A stretch of 20,854 bases of DNA from a virus. The number at the start of each line of letters is the position of its first letter. Within the stretch, counting starts at the first letter, position 1. Under the pieces are notes generated by a model. The model was not told the DNA's origin and did no database searches. It saw only the letters and a program-made list of their open reading frames with translations. Both the position numbers and the translations under genes were made by a program. The stretch lies in the UHGV virus genome UHGV-0059920. One strand, written 5' to 3'. Positions 12,160-20,854 of the stretch are shown one piece after another.

Positions 12160-12176
12160 ATATAGATTAGGCTCAG

Positions 12177-12202
12177 AAAGCGCCTGCTACTGCAGGCGCT
12201 TT
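12177..12202. terminator. Bidirectional rho-independent terminator between convergent Q and the 97-aa ORF
   Basis: AAAGCGCCTGC-tact-GCAGGCGCTTT: an 8-bp GC-rich stem flanked by an A-tract and a T-tract, 18 nt after the Q stop. Confidence 0.6.
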
Positions 12203-12204
12203 GT

Positions 12205-12498
12205 TTACTCTTTAACAAGTGTGCCCCACACCGAGTCTTCAACCTCTTCAACAACAATATTGATGTTGCAAATAACATGGTCTTCACTTACTCGAGTATA
12301 TCTGAATAACCTTGATTTCACTTTCCCACCAAACGACTCACGGTCTTCATTGTTGGTAATGTCGACATAATCCCCAACATTCGGAAGCATCAGGAGTGGA
12401 TTGTCTTCCGAAGAACATCTTACAATCTCTCCATCATCAAGAGGTCGCGTATCCCCTTTACGTAAGTATTGAAAGTCATAGTTGTATATGGTTTTCAT
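12205..12498 (-). CDS. Hypothetical 97-aa acidic protein; AT-rich cargo gene between portal gene and cos
   Basis: Single ATG start with AAGGA 8 nt upstream, terminator immediately downstream, visibly AT-rich codon usage unlike the flanking phage genes. No motif recognised. Confidence 0.55.
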   Translation of the reverse strand: MKTIYNYDFQYLRKGDTRPLDDGEIVRCSSEDNPLLMLPNVGDYVDITNNEDRESFGGKVKSRLFRYTRVSEDHVICNINIVVEEVEDSVWGTLVKE

Positions 12499-12677
12499 TG
12501 TCTATCCTTTTGAAAGTAACATCGCTGACGTATGTTGTTTCACAGTTCCATTTCCACATTAAGTCAATGAAATCAACATCATTTAATGTGTGCCAATATA
12601 TTGCAACACGATCCCGAAAACTTCAAATCAATCTCTCCAATACGCGGGATTATTACTTTTTCGCCCCGTTACGCGCG

Positions 12678-12696
12678 CTCGTATCCCCGCCACGCC
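12678..12696. other. Putative cos site (cohesive-end region)
   Basis: Minus strand reads GGCGTGGCGGGGATACGAG. I recall the P2/P4 cohesive end as GGCGAGGCGGGGAAAGCAC and a near-identical one for 186. It lies on the far side of Q from P, where cos sits in P2. Confidence 0.5.
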
Positions 12697-12740
12697 TGCC
12701 CGCTTTGTGTAGTGGTTTTCATGCACCTGCATGACACAAG

Positions 12741-12770
12741 CAAAAGCCCGCCAGCTCTGGCGGGCATCAG
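12741..12770 (-). terminator. Rho-independent terminator, minus-strand orientation
   Basis: GCCCGCCAG-ctc-TGGCGGGC stem followed on the minus strand by TTTTGCTTG; sits after the HNH gene and before cos. Confidence 0.5.
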
Positions 12771-12878
12771 CAAAAACGATCCTCAAACGATCATGCGATT
12801 TCATGCGGCATAGACATGCGTTGGCAAAAATGTACGAAATACTCAGCTTATAGGAAATGGTCTTTTTCCAACCTCCAG

Positions 12879-13598
12879 TTAGCCAAAGCAGAAACCAATA
12901 TTGCAATTTGAAACTCCACAGTTGTGAAATTGATGTGGACCTACTCTTAGCTTGTGTTCGTCTCCTACAATCCGAGTCCCCTTAACCAACATATCTAATC
13001 TTTCCACAATCAATCTTTCAGGCGCATCAACTTTAATAATTAAACGAGGACCTTTCCTTTTTTCTATAATAGTTATTCTAGGACCGACAACCTGAACATC
13101 CCAATGCCTTGCACTACAAACCCACTCATTCTTAATTAATTCAAGATTAACAATACCTTGACTATCGTAAAATTTACCCGAAATAAGAAAAGCATTATTT
13201 TCTTTTTCAATGGTTAACAATGGCTCATTTTGAAACATTATTGGTACAGTACAGGATTCAAACGTCGCACCACCAAATATTATTGTTGGATGCCTATCAG
13301 AAAAGTCCAATATATCGGCCACATTCCCTTTTTGTAAGGCTGCAGGAGATTCCATTGCTTTAATTATTTTCTCTTTAGAGTAAAGACGTTTCGTTACTTT
13401 CGCATGGCACGTAGGACAAAGTAGTGCTATTGCATTTGGAGAGTGCTCCTTTGCATCAGCGTATGTGGGAATTACATGCTCATACTCAACAATGGGAGAA
13501 GCACAAACAACGCAACCGAAGCCACAGCGCTGCCTTACCTCCAGTTTTACAGGTTCAGGAATTGTTCTAGATAACCCATGCTTGTTAATAGTTGTCAT
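12879..13598 (-). CDS. HNH (His-Me finger) nuclease-domain protein with an unrecognised C-terminal domain of about 170 aa; candidate defence or exclusion cargo
   Basis: N-terminal motif RCGFGCVVC...EYEHVIP...SPNAIALLCPTCHAK has the spacing of a zinc-bound HNH core (CxxC, EH, N, CxxCH). AAGGTAAGG RBS upstream; visibly AT-rich. It sits where P2 carries old/tin. Confidence 0.7.
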   Translation of the reverse strand: MTTINKHGLSRTIPEPVKLEVRQRCGFGCVVCASPIVEYEHVIPTYADAKEHSPNAIALLCPTCHAKVTKRLYSKEKIIKAMESPAALQKGNVADILDFSDRHPTIIFGGATFESCTVPIMFQNEPLLTIEKENNAFLISGKFYDSQGIVNLELIKNEWVCSARHWDVQVVGPRITIIEKRKGPRLIIKVDAPERLIVERLDMLVKGTRIVGDEHKLRVGPHQFHNCGVSNCNIGFCFG

Positions 13599-13634
13599 AA
13601 CCTTACCTTAAAACTTCGAGAAACCTTTTATATA

Positions 13635-13649
13635 TTGATACTATATCAA
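13635..13649. promoter_or_regulatory. Palindrome TTGATA-cta-TATCAA upstream of the HNH gene (candidate operator/promoter element)
   Basis: Perfect 6-bp inverted repeat with a 3-bp spacer inside the 122-bp gap between the DinI-like gene and the HNH gene. Confidence 0.3.
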
Positions 13650-13720: not shown

Positions 13721-13954
13721 TTAATGCAGCCAGCTGTCGTCTTCCCACACCTTCTGCATAATTTTCATCACTTGCTTCCTTTCTTCGTCCAGTTGCAGTC
13801 CGGTCAGTTCCACACCGTTAGAGCTACCTTTGCGGATGCGAATTACCGTTTTTGGATACAGGGGGCGCAGATTGCGGTAAAGCTCGGATTCAAGGGCGTC
13901 CAGGGTAGACTGGCTAATCTTCTGCTCTTTATCGATCATTATTTCAATGCGCAT
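13721..13954 (-). CDS. DinI-like protein (candidate Tum-like SOS antirepressor domain)
   Basis: Start refined to ATG at 13954 with GAGGTG upstream. MRIEIMIDK...LDALESEL...KIMQKVWEDDSW aligns by eye with E. coli DinI as recalled (MRIEVTIAK...IDALAGEL...WESADDW). Confidence 0.8.
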   Translation of the reverse strand: MRIEIMIDKEQKISQSTLDALESELYRNLRPLYPKTVIRIRKGSSNGVELTGLQLDEERKQVMKIMQKVWEDDSWLH

Positions 13955-13964
13955 AAAAGTCACC

Positions 13965-14153
13965 TCAGCTGATGACATCCATTGAGCGGTTGTATTCGTG
14001 GGTTCTGATTTTTGCCATGAGTTCATCTGTCAGTTCAGAAACCCACTGCAAAGCCAGCCCCTTCTCTTCATCACTACACTCACTAGCCGCTACAAGTTTA
14101 AGAAAAAAATCAATGCGCTGGAGCTTCAAAGACTCCAAAAAATAGTCCTGCAT
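13965..14153 (-). CDS. Small hypothetical protein (62 aa), first gene after the LexA box
   Basis: ATG at 14153 preceded by AGGAGGAAAG. Ends 10 nt before the DinI-like start, in a different frame. Confidence 0.5.
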   Translation of the reverse strand: MQDYFLESLKLQRIDFFLKLVAASECSDEEKGLALQWVSELTDELMAKIRTHEYNRSMDVIS

Positions 14154-14194
14154 CTTTCCTCCTATGACACCACAAGCAATACTGTATGTATAAC

Positions 14195-14237
14195 CACTGT
14201 TTATATTTACAGTATATAATAATCTTACTGATGTAAA
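14195..14237 (-). promoter_or_regulatory. LexA (SOS) box overlapping a sigma70-like promoter for the small-ORF/DinI-like operon
   Basis: CTGT-ttatattt-ACAG at 14197-14212; as a 20-mer on the minus strand it reads TACTGTAAATATAAACAGTG against consensus TACTGTATATATATACAGTA. Minus-strand -35 TTTACA (14232-14237) and -10 TATACT (14211-14216) with a 15-nt spacer. Confidence 0.6.
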
Positions 14238-14306
14238 ACGTTTTTTTACGTTCATCAGCCTGATATGCCTGGTATTATTAAGAGCACGAATTGTTAACCC
14301 GCGTAA

Positions 14307-16679
14307 TTAATACAGGTTTCGCCACTTATCATCTTCCTGCAAACGCTGGTTCCGATAGAAGATACGCAGGCCTGCTCCTGACGGAATACTGCCGCCGCGA
14401 AGGAGTAAATCGACCTCTTTCTCGCTGCCATCAAATCCTCTGGACTTCAGTTCATAGACGAGCTGCTGTCGCTGATGGTCTGTAATTCGCTGTTTGTAGT
14501 CTTTACGCCGTTTCGGTTTCACCAGGCGTAACCTTGCAGCTAGTTCCCGGCGCTCTTTTTTGCTCATACTGTGCAGGTAATCGTGCAACGCCTTGTCATC
14601 CATGCGGGTAATGTCCGTCCTGGTATCCCCATCAGCTGATTTGTCTTTCCCTTGTTGGTTCAAATTTTCAGCAAGGGGACAGTTATTGCCACGAGTCCAA
14701 GGGGCGCAAGCGCCCTGGTCGGCTGCCGCCTCCTGAACATCAACGGCCTTACGAACCATTTTCCACTTCACGGCATGAGTGCAGATCTTGCCCTCTGCAA
14801 TAGGTGACCAGATGCCATAAATACGAATGCCGTGATCGCCATAGGCGGTCGGCTCTTCGTTGATTTCATAAGCGGTTCTGATGAGGTGATATTTGCGGGG
14901 AACCAGTACGCCGCCCTGCTTCATGATGTAGGTGGCAAAACAACCAGCATCAGCAGCAGCCAGGATGGCATCAAGGCGCGGGTTATCCAGTACCGGCGCA
15001 CCTGCTTTTTTGTCCCCCTGTTGCCTTGCCGCCTGACCAGCCAGCAATCGCAGTTCACGGTAAGCCTGACGCCCCGGAATGCCAAAGAAGCGGAATTGCT
15101 GAACACGATGCAGAGACGCCCAGGCATTAACGTATTCAGCATTATCACGCAGGGATTTCCCCGTTTCCTTGCTGATCTCGCCAGCCAGACCACGCCCGTC
15201 AATGTTCTTACTGATGTATTTCGCGATGTAGCTTGTTGGCGTACCTTTGCGCGGGTTAATCAACTCAGACTTAAAGCGCGGCCCAGTGTTATTGCCCAGT
15301 TCCTCGCGGTCTTCACGGATGGCAAACTTACGCAGTAATGCAGTGATGGCGCGGCGGTCTTTTTTGCGCATAAAACACAACAGGTGCCAGTGAACTGTAC
15401 CGTCATGATGCGGCTCAGCCACCCGCACGCCATACCACCGCAATCCGGCTTTGTGCATCGCCTTACGAAATGCAGCAAACATGCCGACCAGATAATCACT
15501 GCTTTGTCTTACCGTCGCATTTGTCCAAGTTGGGTTGGGCCTGCCATTATTTAGCGTGGAATGGAAACGTGACGGACAGGTGATGGTGTAGAAAACGGCG
15601 CAGTCACCGCGCATTTCCGCGATAAGCTCCAGGCCTTTAACACAGGCCATCATCTCATTGCGGCGATGCGCAGGGTTGCTGCTGCTGGCGTTTACCACAT
15701 CCTCCATGTCCAGCGTGTCGCCGTCTTCGTTCACCAGTTCATGAGAACGAAAAAACTCCAGCGACTTACGGCGCTGCTCACGTTTATGCATCACGGCTTC
15801 ATAGCTGACATAGGGAGATGCTTTTTTGCTGACCAGGCAGACAGCACGCAACTGCTCTTCCCGCCATTCGCAACGCATCTTCCATAATTTCCGGTACCAC
15901 CAGTCAGCGCACAACATACGCGCCAGCGAACCCGGAATGAGTTCATAGGGCACGGGTTTACGGCGGTTTCTTTTCCGGCGGAGTTGCTCAAACGCAGGCG
16001 GGATGACATCCAGACGCAGGGTTTCCGCTGCCACCTTTTCCCATGTCTTGCGGATTTCTTCTGGCTTAACGTCATCGGTGACATACAAATCGCCACAAGC
16101 TGCATCAAGGCACATGCTCATATGCGCAGCTACCAGGGTGGACAGGCGTTTCACCTGATCCTGACTCATTTCAGGCAGGATCAGCAGGCCGTCCAGCCCT
16201 TCATGGCTTGCCATAAAGCGAAAAGAAGTGGATAGCTGACAGTCGCGTACATGCTCCAGCCGTTCCAGACATGGCTTAATCGTCTCACGCAAATAGCGGG
16301 AATAAGCCTTTGGCCTGCCCAGGCTGCTGAAGTATTCAATACGTTGCATCAGTGGCTTGCTGATATGGGAAGGCTGGGCATTAACGTCCGCCAGAATGAC
16401 CATATCTGGATTAAAACGCTGCTGCTCATGCGCCAGCTTTGCCCGACTAATGAGCTTATCCTGCTCCATTTCGCGCTGGACAGGATCACGGGATTCATTA
16501 AAGAAATAACGCTCCCAGACCTGATCACTCAGTGCCTCGCGGCGCAGCTGTTCCTGCTCGTTATCGGCAGCGTACAGAGCGATCAGGTTTGAAAGCGCAG
16601 AAACTGAAGATTGCTCTTCCGTCTCTACGTAAGGATTGATTGCTTTTTTCTCAGCATTCCAGGAATAGCTGTAGTTCAT
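14307..16679 (-). CDS. A: Replication initiator endonuclease A (rolling-circle nickase)
   Basis: About 790 aa with HxH metal motif ([11 protein letters not shown]) and the active-site tyrosine region ([12 protein letters not shown]). Start taken as ATG at 16679, overlapping the upstream stop (TAATG); the ORF-track start at 16730 is a TTG. Confidence 0.9.
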
Positions 16680-17500
16680 TACGCAATCTCCAGTTCGAGC
16701 TGTGAAGGCTGCAAACCATTCGACAGCCAATCAGAAACTGAAGGTGGGCGAACAGCTTCAATTGCACCTTTTAAAATTGCGCAACGGTTTTTCAGAATGA
16801 CAGCTTTCAGCTCCTTTTCCGTCAGATTGCGCGAATACTCAGCCTCCTGAATAGCCCGCGTCAGCTCAGGATATTTGCTATTAAATTTGGGGACATTGCA
16901 GGCAAGATTTGTACTGTCGGCAGTCGCCAGTGGGTAATTTCCCAACACACGACCGTCAAGCATGCGCAAACCATGAACAGCTGTTTTGAAATTGTGTCGG
17001 CAATAAATTGCTTCAAAAGCGTCCTGCATACGACGATGCCAGTGCGCAGTTCTGATAGCCGCATATTCACCAGACGATCCAAAGCAGACACGAGGCCATT
17101 CACGACATAGCTCGATAAGCCGATCGATTGACTCGTGCAGATGCCAGACGGGAGTTGCCTTCCCGTAGAACATTTTCGGAACTTCGTTTATCAGGGCATC
17201 ATTGTCACGTTCACCTCCGTCCACAACATCAGGAATGACAAAAAAAGCGACCTTAGGATGGTGGTAATAGTTCAGGAGCCATTTATAAAAATCACTCCAG
17301 TTAATTTTTAGCCCACGCACCCATGCAGAAAATGCGCCGTTATCAATGCCGACGACCTGAGCGTGCTGAATGGACGCCGCAATCTGATCTGGTCGTACAT
17401 AGGAGACGAAAGCGCCAGCTCCGCTCACCGCAATACGATGAACGTCGCCAGCACTTCCCCAGACAGGCGTCCCATGGAAATGATGAATTCCGTGGTGCAT
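16679..17500 (-). CDS. Hypothetical protein of about 273 aa, translationally coupled between dam and A
   Basis: ATG at 17500, 5 nt after the Dam stop; its own stop overlaps the A start. No motif I can assign by eye. Confidence 0.6.
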
Positions 17501-17505
17501 TTCTT

Positions 17506-18360
17506 TCACACTTGCACCCCGAAAATAACAGTAGAGTCACGTCCCCTACTAAAATCGGCACTAAACCAATTAGCAGATTTAGTGGCAATCATCTCTGTTG
17601 CAAATTTTCCCTCCCCCGCTGCAACGCCGATGCTGCGTTTCGCCCTGATGTAGTGGTGAGTGAAATTACGATAAAGGGACCGGGTCAAAGACGTGTTACT
17701 GTTAGAAACAATGACCGGATGTCCTTCTGATGACCGATGTTCAAGAATGGATGCCAGGTGATACTGATCATCTTCAGTGAAACCATCAGTGTGATAGCCG
17801 GAAAACGTACCGTCATAAGGCGGATCGCAATACACCACATCCCCCACCTTCAACATCGCCAGCGTTTCATCAAAGCTGGCGCAGATAAACGTTGCCCGCT
17901 GGGCTTTCTCTGCAAATGCGCGAATTTCTTTTTCAGGGAAATACGGATTTTTATAATTACCGTAGGGAATGTTGAAATGCCCGCTCTTGTTATAGCGACA
18001 TAAACCACGGTAACCGTGACGATTGAGATACAGGAAATATACCGCTTTCATGAAATCAGTAATTTCAGTGGAGTAATTAAACTCCTGCCTTATGTTGTAA
18101 TAAGCCACCTCCCTGTTTGCTTCCTCAAATAAAGCTCTGGCACGAGATATAAACGCCTCACAATCAGCAGCAACCTTTTTATAGAGGTTGATTAAATCAG
18201 GATTAATATCCGCAACAAGATAGCTGGGGTAATCCGTCTCCATCATCACTGCACAGGAACCCGCGAAAGGTTCAACCAGTCGCGGGCCAGCAGGAAGATG
18301 CTTTTTCAGTTCGGACATTATGGCGGTTTTATTTCCTGCCCATTTCAGGATGGTGCTCAT
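17506..18360 (-). CDS. dam: DNA adenine methyltransferase, Dam-like
   Basis: Motifs KWAGNK, EPFAGS and DPPY; ATG at 18360 with GGAGGTG upstream (the ORF-track start at 18420 is a TTG). Confidence 0.85.
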
Positions 18361-18584
18361 ACAGCACCTCCGTTGTAATGTTTGCCTTTCAGCTCTGCGA
18401 TTTCCTGACAGGTAATGCAAAGCTGCACACCCGGAATGGCACGGCGGCGTGCTGGCGGAATTGGCGCTTCACACTCAACGCAAAGCACGCGGGACACGCC
18501 CGGCGTTTTGGCACGGGCAGCACGGATATGGCGTTGGCGTTCTTCTTCAACGCGCTGCTGTACGAGATCCATTGCATCAGCCAT
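18357..18584 (-). CDS. TraR/DksA-family C4 zinc-finger protein
   Basis: 75 aa with CVECEAPIP...CITCQ (CxxC...CxxC); AGGAGA RBS; sits where P2 has small early ORFs between B and A. Confidence 0.75.
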   Translation of the reverse strand: MADAMDLVQQRVEEERQRHIRAARAKTPGVSRVLCVECEAPIPPARRRAIPGVQLCITCQEIAELKGKHYNGGAV

Positions 18585-18817
18585 CAGTGGATCTCCTGCG
18601 CTTCGTTCTGGATTGCTTCAGCAGTCACACGCAGCAGTTCTGCCGCTTCGACGTGGTTTAGCTGGCGGGAGGTGATATGACACGCCAGGCTATCGAGGCG
18701 AGCAGCCATTGCTTCAGCCCTTGCCCGGCGTTCTTCCAGACGAGCCTCTGTCAGTAAAAGATTAAGACCTGCATCATCCGGTCCGGTTTTGGTCGTGAGG
18801 GTTTCAATATTACGCAT
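18584..18817 (-). CDS. Small hypothetical early protein
   Basis: ATG at 18817 with AGGAG upstream (the ORF-track start at 18823 is a TTG); its stop overlaps the next start. Confidence 0.55.
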   Translation of the reverse strand: MRNIETLTTKTGPDDAGLNLLLTEARLEERRARAEAMAARLDSLACHITSRQLNHVEAAELLRVTAEAIQNEAQEIH

Positions 18818-18884
18818 AAGCAATTCTCCTGAATTTAGATAAAGGGATGCCCGGCGGGTTTACGCCATTAATTTCATTAGTTGG

Positions 18885-19226
18885 TTAATTCGGCATGGTT
18901 AGCCGTCTGGGAAATAAGCTCACCACTGCACGAAAATGATTCATTGCTTTAATCAACTCCCGCTTTTCGTCAGTGGTCAGCTCATTAATGCTGATGCTAT
19001 GACGTTCAGCTGGAATTTTTGCCATAAAGAATATGGCAGCCAGTGCCCGTTTATTTTGTTCATTATTGATATCCCGAGGATCACGCATATCTTTAATAAA
19101 CCGCTCAAGCTCTGACTCAATATTCAAACCAAAAACTTTCGCCCTTAACTCCGCAATATGATTAAGTCCATTCAGGCGTTCACCGGGTCTTAATGGAACA
19201 GTCGCCGCAGCGCCTTCAATAGCCAT
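18885..19226 (-). CDS. Hypothetical early protein (113 aa)
   Basis: ATG at 19226; overlaps the upstream ORF by 37 nt, so the start or reality of one of the pair is uncertain. Confidence 0.5.
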   Translation of the reverse strand: MAIEGAAATVPLRPGERLNGLNHIAELRAKVFGLNIESELERFIKDMRDPRDINNEQNKRALAAIFFMAKIPAERHSISINELTTDEKRELIKAMNHFRAVVSLFPRRLTMPN

Positions 19227-19390
19227 TTGTTCCCCCGTTTTTTCGTAGATAGTTCTGCCAGCAATTCATCTTGTGAACGGCACGGATGCCAGCGTTTACC
19301 ATCCTCACCCATGATCCAGCCGTGACCGTAGTGCATTGCCGGACTTTGTTTTACCAGCAGCGATGCAAATGATGGTTCTTTCGTCAGCAT
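19190..19390 (-). CDS. Small hypothetical early protein (about 66 aa)
   Basis: ATG at 19390 with GAGGTG upstream, immediately after the B stop. Confidence 0.45.
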   Translation of the reverse strand: MLTKEPSFASLLVKQSPAMHYGHGWIMGEDGKRWHPCRSQDELLAELSTKKRGNKWLLKALRRLFH

Positions 19391-19397
19391 AAGCACC

Positions 19398-19907
19398 TCA
19401 CAGCAAACCGAATGAAGCACCGAGGCCAGTCACGGTATCAACTGCACTCGCCATCGCAGGATTAGCCTGTAAACGGGCCTGCAATGAAACAGCGGCCAGC
19501 GCCATCAGTCGTGTTACAGAGTTAATGCTGCTGATAGCATCACGACGACCTGCACTGGTTTTTACATCGCCAGATACCGCACCTGCAGCAACACGCCCGA
19601 TCTCTGCGGTTGCACTCATGACATAATGCGGCAGTTTCTCTTTTGCCACCTCATTAATCGGTACACATGGCAGGCAGTGAATCTGTGCCAGAAAGCCATC
19701 TACCAGCGTTGAATCTTCAGTCAGATCGGTAAGCAACCAGATTTCTGGTGCGGTTAATAAATGAGGTTGAGCTGGGTTCAGCTTGTTCCGCAGAATCTGT
19801 ACATTCATGCCTGCACGTTCTGCCAGTCGCACCAGGTTGTGGCGCAGTGCGAATGCACGACAGGCTTCGTCAAAATGTGGATGTTTGGAAACTTGATAAT
19901 CAAACAT
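19398..19907 (-). CDS. B: Replication protein B-like
   Basis: 169 aa, first large gene after the Cox/Apl-like gene in the early operon; P2 B has similar size and position. Assigned by synteny. Confidence 0.6.
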
Positions 19908-19939
19908 AGTCAGCCCCTTCCCTTTATTTCAAAATCGAA

Positions 19940-20161
19940 TCAATTGATTACGACATTGGAATCGGCAAGCGCATCCACTGTCATGGCTGCAATGTTGATC
20001 ATTACCTTTTCACGTTTTTTATCCTTGCGAAGACGATGCCGCTTAAGGCGTCCATCTGCGAGCATACTGTTGATAGTGTCTACAGATAACCCTGTGAGTT
20101 CACTGTACTTTTCAACCGAAATGGATGGGACAGCTAATGTGATTGAAATGTGCTGAGTCAT
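19940..20161 (-). CDS. Cox/Apl-like small helix-turn-helix protein (lytic-side switch regulator/excisionase)
   Basis: 73 aa, first gene of the early leftward operon, divergent from the repressor; HTH-like segment VEKYSELTGLSVDTINSMLADGRL. Confidence 0.65.
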   Translation of the reverse strand: MTQHISITLAVPSISVEKYSELTGLSVDTINSMLADGRLKRHRLRKDKKREKVMINIAAMTVDALADSNVVIN

Positions 20162-20233
20162 AAGGCAACATCTCCTGTTTAAGTGTGTTTAACATTGACG
20201 AGTAGTTGTAAGTCACATTTTGAAATCAATGCG

Positions 20234-20262
20234 ACTATAAGATCACAAATTGAAATCGTCAA
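20234..20262 (-). promoter_or_regulatory. Early lytic promoter (Pe/pR-like) for the Cox/Apl-B-A operon
   Basis: Minus strand TTGACG-17 nt-TATAGT (-35 at 20257-20262, -10 at 20234-20239) in the repressor/Cox intergenic region. Confidence 0.55.
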
Positions 20263-20287
20263 CCATAAAGTTCACAAGGTGAAATCG

Positions 20288-20854
20288 ATGGATTTTAGTC
20301 AAGGTGGAAAGAAAGCTATCGAAAGGATGGTTGAAGCCTATGGGTTCACTACAAGACAGGCGTTATGTGAACAACTAGGCATATCAAAAAGCAGTCTTGC
20401 TACACGCTACATGAGAGATTCATTCCCTTCTGATTGGGTTATTCAGTGCGCGCTCGAAACAGGAGTAAACATAAAGTGGCTGGTAACAGGCTTACCTCCT
20501 AAACATGAATATTTAACGTCTGACATCATCAATATTCAAAAAATAAAATTGATTGATGGAGTGCTATTGGATGCAGGAACACTAATGTTTGACAAAGTGT
20601 TCATTCCTGATGGTTTATCATCACCATCTGTGATATCAAACGGGAATAACTCTTATTTTATTGAGAGGGATTTCACAGATGTAGTTGATGGTGATTGGTT
20701 AATCTCCATTGATGGAAAGCATTCTATAAAACAAGTTATTAGAATTCCTGATAATAAAGTTAAGATTAACTATGGGAATATCATTGTTGATATGAACATT
20801 AATGACCTTGTATTCATCGGCAAAGTTATAGCAGAATTCAAGATAAGAGGCTAA
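20288..20854 (+). CDS. cI: CI-type immunity repressor (186-like, no obvious LexA-like autocleavage motif)
   Basis: Start refined to ATG at 20288 with AAGGTG upstream; about 188 aa. Segments EAYGF and CALETGVNIKWLVTG resemble 186 CI as recalled; no S24 peptidase motif seen. Ends with TAA at the window edge. Confidence 0.78.
   Translation: MDFSQGGKKAIERMVEAYGFTTRQALCEQLGISKSSLATRYMRDSFPSDWVIQCALETGVNIKWLVTGLPPKHEYLTSDIINIQKIKLIDGVLLDAGTLMFDKVFIPDGLSSPSVISNGNNSYFIERDFTDVVDGDWLISIDGKHSIKQVIRIPDNKVKINYGNIIVDMNINDLVFIGKVIAEFKIRG

Follow-up and report, generated by a model that had tools for sequence, protein, structure and literature searches.

DpdA-family 7-deazaguanine DNA transglycosylases have been described from bacteria as well as from phages. 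The bacterial enzyme of the Salmonella Montevideo Dpd system (PDB 7UI4) is 413 amino acids (aa) long, has DNA-binding insertions and a zinc site, needs the ATPase DpdB and works with DpdC and the restriction genes dpdD-K. Its Asp95 serves as acid/base and its Asp256 as nucleophile; changing either one to alanine leaves no exchange (PMC10164549). Among phages, the Queuovirinae, e.g. the Escherichia phages CAjan and 9g, encode DpdA1 along with their own folE-queD-queE-queC cluster and a transporter or amidotransferase. About 25–32% of G is replaced in these phages, compared to at most 0.13% of G in the singleton, 'DpdA-only' group. dPreQ0 is lost on deletion of CAjan dpdA (PMC6884629). We compared these systems with an open reading frame (ORF) of 273 aa, which lies between a Dam methyltransferase gene and the replication gene A in the virus genome UHGV-0059920. 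The whole stretch analysed, 20,854 nucleotides (nt) in length and referred to as the window, is an Escherichia coli 186/P2-like (Peduoviridae) prophage.

The closest described relatives belong to the 'DpdA-only' phages. Genes for making preQ0 or G+ are missing from these phages, and the full queuosine pathway is present in their hosts (PMC6884629). Salmonella phage 7-11 is part of this group of 76 phages and its DNA was found to contain dADG at 50 per 10^6 nt by liquid chromatography-tandem mass spectrometry (LC-MS/MS) (PMC6884629). In Pantoea phage MED16, gp38 was described as a preQ0 DNA deoxyribosyltransferase (DpdA). MED16 DNA contains approximately 354 dADG per 10^6 nt by LC-MS/MS, and the phage encodes dpdA only, without preQ0 synthesis genes (Simoliunas et al. 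2021, PMC8306585). The closest viral relatives of MED16 DpdA were named as SEN1 gp38 and SW9 gp39 (PMC8306585). SEN1 gp38 (YP_009217891) had also been included in the list of DpdA phages in Supplementary Data 1 of an earlier study (Hutinet et al. 2019, PMC6884629).

Based on homology, the ORF likely encodes a phage DpdA, i.e. a reduced form of the tRNA-guanine transglycosylase (TGT) superfamily acting on double-stranded DNA; this statement covers both family and activity class. Scans of the ORF against Pfam, NCBIfam and PADLOC gave no match. PDB sequences, queried with the ORF product itself and with profiles of 44 and 79 sequences, returned spurious matches only, e.g. a coat protein and GCN4 coiled coils. 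The RefSeq label 'hypothetical' for WP_001420002.1 is explained by the lack of matches in these four resources. To the same extent, the initial annotation was right to report no recognisable motif, but this does not hold for PHROGs, where the ORF falls in phrog_887 'queuine tRNA-ribosyltransferase' (E 7.5e-96). Of 50,697 phage records searched by tblastn, 105 contained a match to the ORF. Identity is 76% to the homologues of the P2-like Salmonella phages SI22 and SEN1 (gp38), 55% to MED16 gp38 (over 265 aa, E 1e-106), approximately 42% to the homologue of the P22-like phage BTP1 and 35% to the DpdA of phage 7-11 (gp032, E 1e-59). MED16 gp38, 7-11 gp032 and SEN1 gp38 are thus of one family with the prophage protein, with which these 'DpdA-only' proteins have in common a short barrel architecture of approximately 235–275 aa. 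The protein, regarded as unassigned in the initial annotation, therefore has an orthologue already listed as DpdA and named in the MED16 paper. Via the SEN1 listing, it is essentially a widespread, conserved protein whose function is already known from related prophages. The suggestion of a DNA-modification or anti-restriction accessory, together with the proposed comparison with transglycosylase-like enzymes, agrees with its homology to the DpdA family and its TGT fold.

More distant comparisons point in the same direction. The family comprises 886 members at E <= 1e-3 among 1.84 billion cluster representatives, with a conserved core formed by residues ~5–205. Alignment of the 79-sequence family profile with CAjan DpdA by hhalign yielded a probability of 98.9% (E 2e-17, 172 columns). 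The DpdA1 of Queuovirinae is thus homologous, with the motifs D-S/N-G-A-F-S and x-D-S-S/T and two conserved His in common, although sequence identity to the prophage protein is only approximately 19%. Significant matches were therefore obtained to DpdAs with experimental support from MED16, 7-11 and CAjan. In BFVD, all named matches with E <= 1e-3 are phage 'queuine/queuosine tRNA-ribosyltransferase' proteins. An unnamed protein of Vibrio phage nt-1 was also matched, which is possibly DpdA2.

The ORF product features a TGT-like (beta/alpha)8 barrel. This minimal TIM barrel spans residues ~5–205 and is followed by a subfamily-specific helical C-terminus (all residue numbers refer to the 273-aa form). 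Invariant positions in the 79-sequence alignment, which has a mean column identity of 27%, are D53, D91, H120, H176, D195 and S196. When aligned with CAjan DpdA, DNGAFS pairs with DSGAFS, both His pair with His and ADST pairs with CDSS. D53 (in DNGAFS) and D195 (in ADST) are predicted to be the catalytic residues: this Asp pair is invariant in the 79 homologues and aligns with the CAjan motifs. The order and spacing of H120, G141-SSG144 and D195 parallel those of His181, Gly206/207 and Asp256 of the bacterial enzyme. By order and spacing, not by superposition, D53 and D195 would be the equivalents of Asp95 and Asp256 in 7UI4.

Several points weigh against the assignment as a DpdA. No match to PF01702 (TGT) in Pfam, to NCBIfam or to PDB sequences was found, even with profiles, and the family profile reached a probability of only 1.7% against a single E. 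coli Tgt sequence, which marks a limit of the evidence. Foldseek against the PDB returned mainly generic TIM barrels. In CAjan DpdA, the position of the invariant D91 is taken by a Ser (an Asp follows three residues later), and the third active-site Asp is thus insecurely mapped. The structural zinc site of TGT and bacterial DpdA is absent; the five Cys (132, 139, 167, 201 and 240) are scattered and do not form a CxCxxC motif. CAjan DpdA likewise shows no CxCxxC-type motif and, for this reason, a structural zinc site does not appear to be a defining feature of phage DpdAs. The assignment is a prediction from sequences and folds, as it is for all P2-like orthologues. Literature searches for 2023 onward, in part restricted by date, found no experiments on DpdAs of the singleton or P2-like type. 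For SEN1 and this prophage, a modification like the dADG measured in MED16 and 7-11 is predicted from the gene.

The name of phrog_887, shared by many GenBank records, and the TGT-like fold would also fit a true queuine/preQ1 tRNA-ribosyltransferase, which would reprogramme host or phage tRNA decoding during lytic growth. We consider this very improbable. The product names were transferred by homology, whereas the closest relatives with experiments (MED16, 7-11 and CAjan) all point to DNA modification. In addition, the 273-aa protein is a bare barrel without the zinc subdomain and the C-terminal parts used by TGTs, Tgt is already present in E. coli, and no phage tRNA genes are found in the region. 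A TGT proper or a DpdA of the bacterial type was rejected as a candidate, given the absence of the zinc site, of a PF01702 match and of DpdB and DpdC. For these Dpd partners, PADLOC gave no Dpd match in the window, and no dpdB or dpdC neighbours are present in the annotation of the related prophage of E. coli RM10466.

A TGT-fold enzyme could also have a target other than nucleic acid or a regulatory one. It might act like Cap10 of type IV CBASS (cyclic oligonucleotide-based antiphage signalling system) on a 7-deazaguanine-conjugated protein, or it might act on the gene A protein (gpA) or the replication origin, which would explain the constant place of the ORF upstream of gene A. Either version is hardly credible. 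In the structural comparison, Cap10 leads DpdA 7UI4 by only 1.6 Z units, and neither a Cap9/QueC-like nor a CD-NTase gene was found in the window or the related prophage. Cap10 was rejected accordingly, the likeness being one of fold only. Regarding gpA as a target, any gene preceding A overlaps A in the same manner, as seen for Dam in Klebsiella phage 4LV2017, and homologues of the ORF also occur in phages without gpA (MED16, 7-11 and BTP1). The same comparison removes the overlap between DpdA and A as a sign of a role in replication. Since Dam overlaps A equally in 4LV2017, where DpdA is absent, the stop/start overlap with A is a property of the operon, and the idea of a replication helper, put forward in the initial annotation, found no support.

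The features of the locus assigned to DpdA and its surroundings are summarised in Table 1.

Table 1 Coordinates of features around the putative DpdA gene in the window
Feature	Position	Strand	Evidence
DksA/TraR-type C4 zinc-finger gene, 75 aa	18357..18584	minus	PF01258 E 4.4e-11; phrog_54 E 1.8e-30
Dam-family orphan N6-adenine DNA methyltransferase, 284 aa	17506..18360	minus	PF02086, TIGR00571, PADLOC orphan MTase
DpdA-family 7-deazaguanine DNA transglycosylase (putative)	16679..17509 (276 aa, GTG) or 16679..17500 (273 aa, ATG)	minus	phrog_887 and homology
Replication initiator gene A, 790 aa, rolling-circle nickase	14307..16679	minus	PF05840 E 9.5e-128; phrog_91 E 6e-288
Candidate early lytic promoter TTGACG-17-TATAGT, 10/12 matches	20234..20262	minus	Consensus scan; assigned by position only

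According to the ORF listing and direct reading of the sequence, the zinc-finger gene, Dam, the DpdA ORF and gene A follow each other in this order on the minus strand, with overlapping stop and start codons. The ATG of Dam (18360) overlaps the zinc-finger stop in the tetranucleotide ATGA at 18357–18360. At the other end, the TAA stop of DpdA (16679–16681) overlaps the ATG of gene A (16677–16679), forming TAATG. Dam stops with TGA at 17506–17508, and the ATG at 17500, 5 nt past this stop, opens the 273-aa ORF; this start is used by PGAP. The ORF listing, the sequence itself and the profiles bear out the initial annotation in these respects, i.e. the Dam motifs, the 273-aa ORF 5 nt later and its TAATG junction with gene A. 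An in-frame GTG at 17509, which overlaps the Dam stop (GTGA), gives a 276-aa form. The (G/A)TGA overlap of the Dam stop with the DpdA start is kept in every Dam-containing relative examined, and in a DpdA lineage with 85% identity the downstream position is not a start codon. For both reasons, the real product is probably the 276-aa form, and the ATG at 17500 would be a mis-called start. The coupling between Dam and DpdA would therefore be tighter than the 5-nt gap noted before.

The distribution of the genes was analysed in complete genomes and at individual loci. When 5,426 complete E. coli genomes were searched, the region from Dam to A was matched in 1,244, with >=80% of it covered in only 102 matches. 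The DpdA gene itself is present in 103 complete E. coli genomes, nearly all with >=99% identity (99.9% in ATCC 8739). Surroundings of DpdA were examined at 9 genome loci and in 80 viral contigs. DpdA followed by A without detectable Dam was observed in SEN1, at 7 of the 9 genome loci and in approximately 35 viral contigs. SEN1 is also P2-like and its DpdA gene occupies the same slot, overlapping gene A; in the E. coli 186-like prophage DpdA is preceded by Dam, whereas SEN1 has a 92-aa ORF in that place. The reverse case is found in Klebsiella phage 4LV2017, in which Dam is followed by A with a 4-nt overlap as here and DpdA is missing. Counted by lineage, approximately five DpdA lineages have Dam (67–100% identical) and approximately seven do not.

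Such a distribution is difficult to reconcile with a dedicated two-enzyme module of Dam and DpdA, in which both act on the same site (e.g. the G and A of GATC) or need each other. The (G/A)TGA overlap speaks for a module, as it is kept in >=5 lineages despite divergence of both proteins (Dam down to 67–74% identity, DpdA to 71–85%). MED16 has an adenine methyltransferase six genes upstream of dpdA, and GA is among the known DpdA target motifs (PMC10484667). However, the flanking Dam/A region is matched in more than ten times as many E. coli genomes as those with DpdA, each gene occurs without the other in the phages, genome loci and contigs named above, and no Dam homologue is found within 2–2.5 kb flanks of DpdA in BTP1 and 7-11. 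We regard a dedicated module as improbable. An obligate pair of Dam and DpdA is ruled out by the distribution, each gene occurring alone in the same slot; the proposal in the initial annotation that the two are dedicated partners is not upheld. The slot upstream of A is instead an interchangeable cargo bay for DNA-modification genes, holding Dam, DpdA or both. As DNA-modification genes, Dam and DpdA are independent of each other and only sometimes share this slot, and their tight coupling reflects the build of the operon, not a dedicated partnership of Dam with DpdA or of DpdA with A.

The junction with gene A is widely conserved. DpdA overlaps gpA by its stop/start codons in all but two P2-like loci with both genes, irrespective of gpA type (30–100% identity). 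The exceptions are L016, with a gap of 0 nt, and L077, which gave an anomalous value of 340 nt. At loci L003–L096, the C-terminus of DpdA (…LELEIA or LELAIA) and the GCATGA/TAATG junction are conserved. This junction is kept even where gpA is 30–37% identical over the aligning part, which begins at around residue 168. Recombination may therefore move DpdA as one unit with the 5' end of gene A.

Dam was characterised in the same way. Its translation contains the motifs KWAGNK (residues 6–11), FAGS (residues 32–35) and DPPY. Profile matches were obtained to PF02086 (E 2e-76) and TIGR00571 'dam' (E 4.3e-95; 318 bits compared to a cut-off of 115), and PADLOC identified the protein as an orphan MTase (E 6e-110). 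With FAGS as motif I, the catalytic DPPY as motif IV and the profile match, it is a member of the D12 class. The score against the equivalog model of E. coli Dam, 288 bits, is below the cut-off of 441 bits. GATC specificity of the prophage Dam is thus a prediction. The number of GATC sites in the window is unremarkable (72 observed, 81 expected). Dam of 4LV2017 (gp07) is 88% identical and likewise follows the zinc-finger gene of the early operon; it abuts gene A directly, whereas the DpdA gene sits between Dam and A in the window.

One Logan contig encodes a 421-aa in-frame Dam::DpdA fusion (P0011), composed of Dam residues 1–~192 and DpdA residues ~45–273. It lacks the C-terminal third of Dam (~90 aa; DPPY is kept) and the first barrel strands of DpdA. 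A deletion or an artefact of assembly probably gave rise to the fusion.

The early operon runs away from CI in the order first early gene, CII, Fil, DUF5347, DUF2732, zinc finger, Dam, DpdA and A. The candidate promoter (Table 1) precedes the first early gene and points away from the gene for the CI repressor; judged by position only, it is the likely source of the transcript carrying CII through Dam, DpdA and A. In a promoter/terminator scan of 14000–20854, matches were no more numerous than in shuffled sequence, and the scan gave no sign of promoters or terminators inside the stretch from Dam through DpdA to A. The prophage of E. coli RM10466 is 99.6% identical to the window across the Dam/DpdA region and 92–96% identical elsewhere, except for short variable stretches, the ORFs of which encode an HNH endonuclease and unknown proteins. 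E. coli is known to carry queCDEF, folE and tgt; of strain MG1655, tgt and queA were observed directly. The full RefSeq annotation of the RM10466 prophage lists no que or folE genes. With DpdA present and these genes missing, the prophage resembles the 'DpdA-only' phages, including a host with the full queuosine pathway.

Genomic context from another phage supports a 7-deazaguanine substrate independently of homology. In the Flyfo siphovirus Tbat1_6 (L098, 2025–3283), a DpdA homologue with 61% identity directly follows a gene for a Vut_1/YhhQ-family transporter (PF02592, E 4.7e-10). The annotated preQ0 transporter of CAjan matches the same PF02592 family, with a score just under the gathering cut-off (25.3 compared to 27.2 bits).

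From these comparisons, a mechanism can be proposed for the putative DpdA. Its gene would be transcribed with the early lytic operon and its translation coupled to that of Dam upstream and protein A downstream. The enzyme would presumably be made as phage DNA replication begins. A small, probably sequence-specific subset of guanines in the progeny DNA would be exchanged for a 7-deazaguanine base, either preQ0 or the amide ADG, which the host would supply through its queuosine pathway (folE-queD-queE-queC). If the analogy to TGT and bacterial DpdA holds, D195 would serve as nucleophile, yielding a covalent enzyme-DNA intermediate, and D53 as general acid/base. Dam would add N6-methyladenine independently and in parallel. 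Virion DNA would then carry two marks, which would probably weaken restriction or other defences directed at DNA once the next host is entered. What the analysis shows is the structure of the gene, its family, the fold, the conserved residues and the distribution among genomes; the enzymatic activity, the inserted base, the target motif, the timing of expression and the protective role are inferred. At the density observed in MED16 and 7-11, a genome of ~33 kb would hold approximately 3–25 modified sites.

Data on the relatives speak against parts of this scheme. The modification in MED16 and 7-11 is very sparse, amounting to 0.02–0.13% of G (PMC8306585, PMC6884629), and MED16 DNA was only slightly protected by it from the restriction enzymes that were tried (PMC8306585). 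An anti-restriction role is therefore weakly founded. Furthermore, MED16 and 7-11 contain dADG, not dPreQ0, although they are without a DpdC-like hydrolase. A more specific reading of the P2-like singleton DpdAs, which we consider unlikely, is as follows. They could write ADG site-specifically and directly, taking it from the QueC reaction without a DpdC-type hydrolase, at a few tens of defined sites per genome, and not be low-efficiency copies of the Queuovirinae enzymes. The result would be a second epigenetic mark, made along with Dam and gpA, whose use might differ from classical anti-restriction, e.g. to evade a particular defence or to mark replicated or packaged DNA. This reading is compatible with the occurrence of dADG instead of dPreQ0 at approximately 10–35 sites per genome in two relatives, the small protective effect in MED16 and the overlap with gene A, which persists although gpA differs widely in type.

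Earlier publications already describe the family and the 'DpdA-only' category and even include a P2-like orthologue; an annotation gap is filled and neither a new mechanism nor a new system is described. New are the assignment of this E. coli prophage protein together with a large, almost entirely 'hypothetical' protein set, and the description of the slot for Dam and DpdA cargo. The annotation as DpdA-family DNA transglycosylase can be given to WP_001420002.1 and to approximately 1,900 related protein clusters, for which no Pfam or NCBIfam model exists. Among 120 listed clusters, all source-named entries are called 'hypothetical protein' or bear similarly uninformative names, apart from one apparently mistaken name as an XRE regulator. 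An inducible P2/186-like prophage with the DpdA gene occurs in approximately 2% of complete E. coli genomes, among them that of the laboratory strain ATCC 8739. Such a prophage offers a tractable temperate model for questions on 'DpdA-only' phages, namely the inserted base, its motif, the origin of dADG without DpdC and the role of a sparse mark.

Variable cargo was also observed at other positions of these prophages. A 239-aa HNH endonuclease ORF (PF01844, E 2.4e-5) is encoded at 12879–13598 on the minus strand of the window. It lies inside a variable stretch (12163–13647) that does not align with the otherwise 96–99% identical prophage of RM10466 and forms a second slot for variable cargo, flanked by the portal gene and a DinI/Tum-like gene (13721–14026). 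The only PADLOC match of this HNH ORF, to a type IV restriction enzyme, was non-significant (E 0.0095). In the RM10466 prophage (L002, 24457–26190), a gene pair encoding an AAA-family ATPase and a DUF4276 protein is located between the CI repressor and the integrase, just past the CI end of the window. It looks like a two-gene defence cargo in a P2-type hotspot. In 4LV2017 (L001, 1–155), which is without DpdA, a gene annotated as 'retron St85 family effector protein' was found downstream of gene A, again as variable defence cargo.

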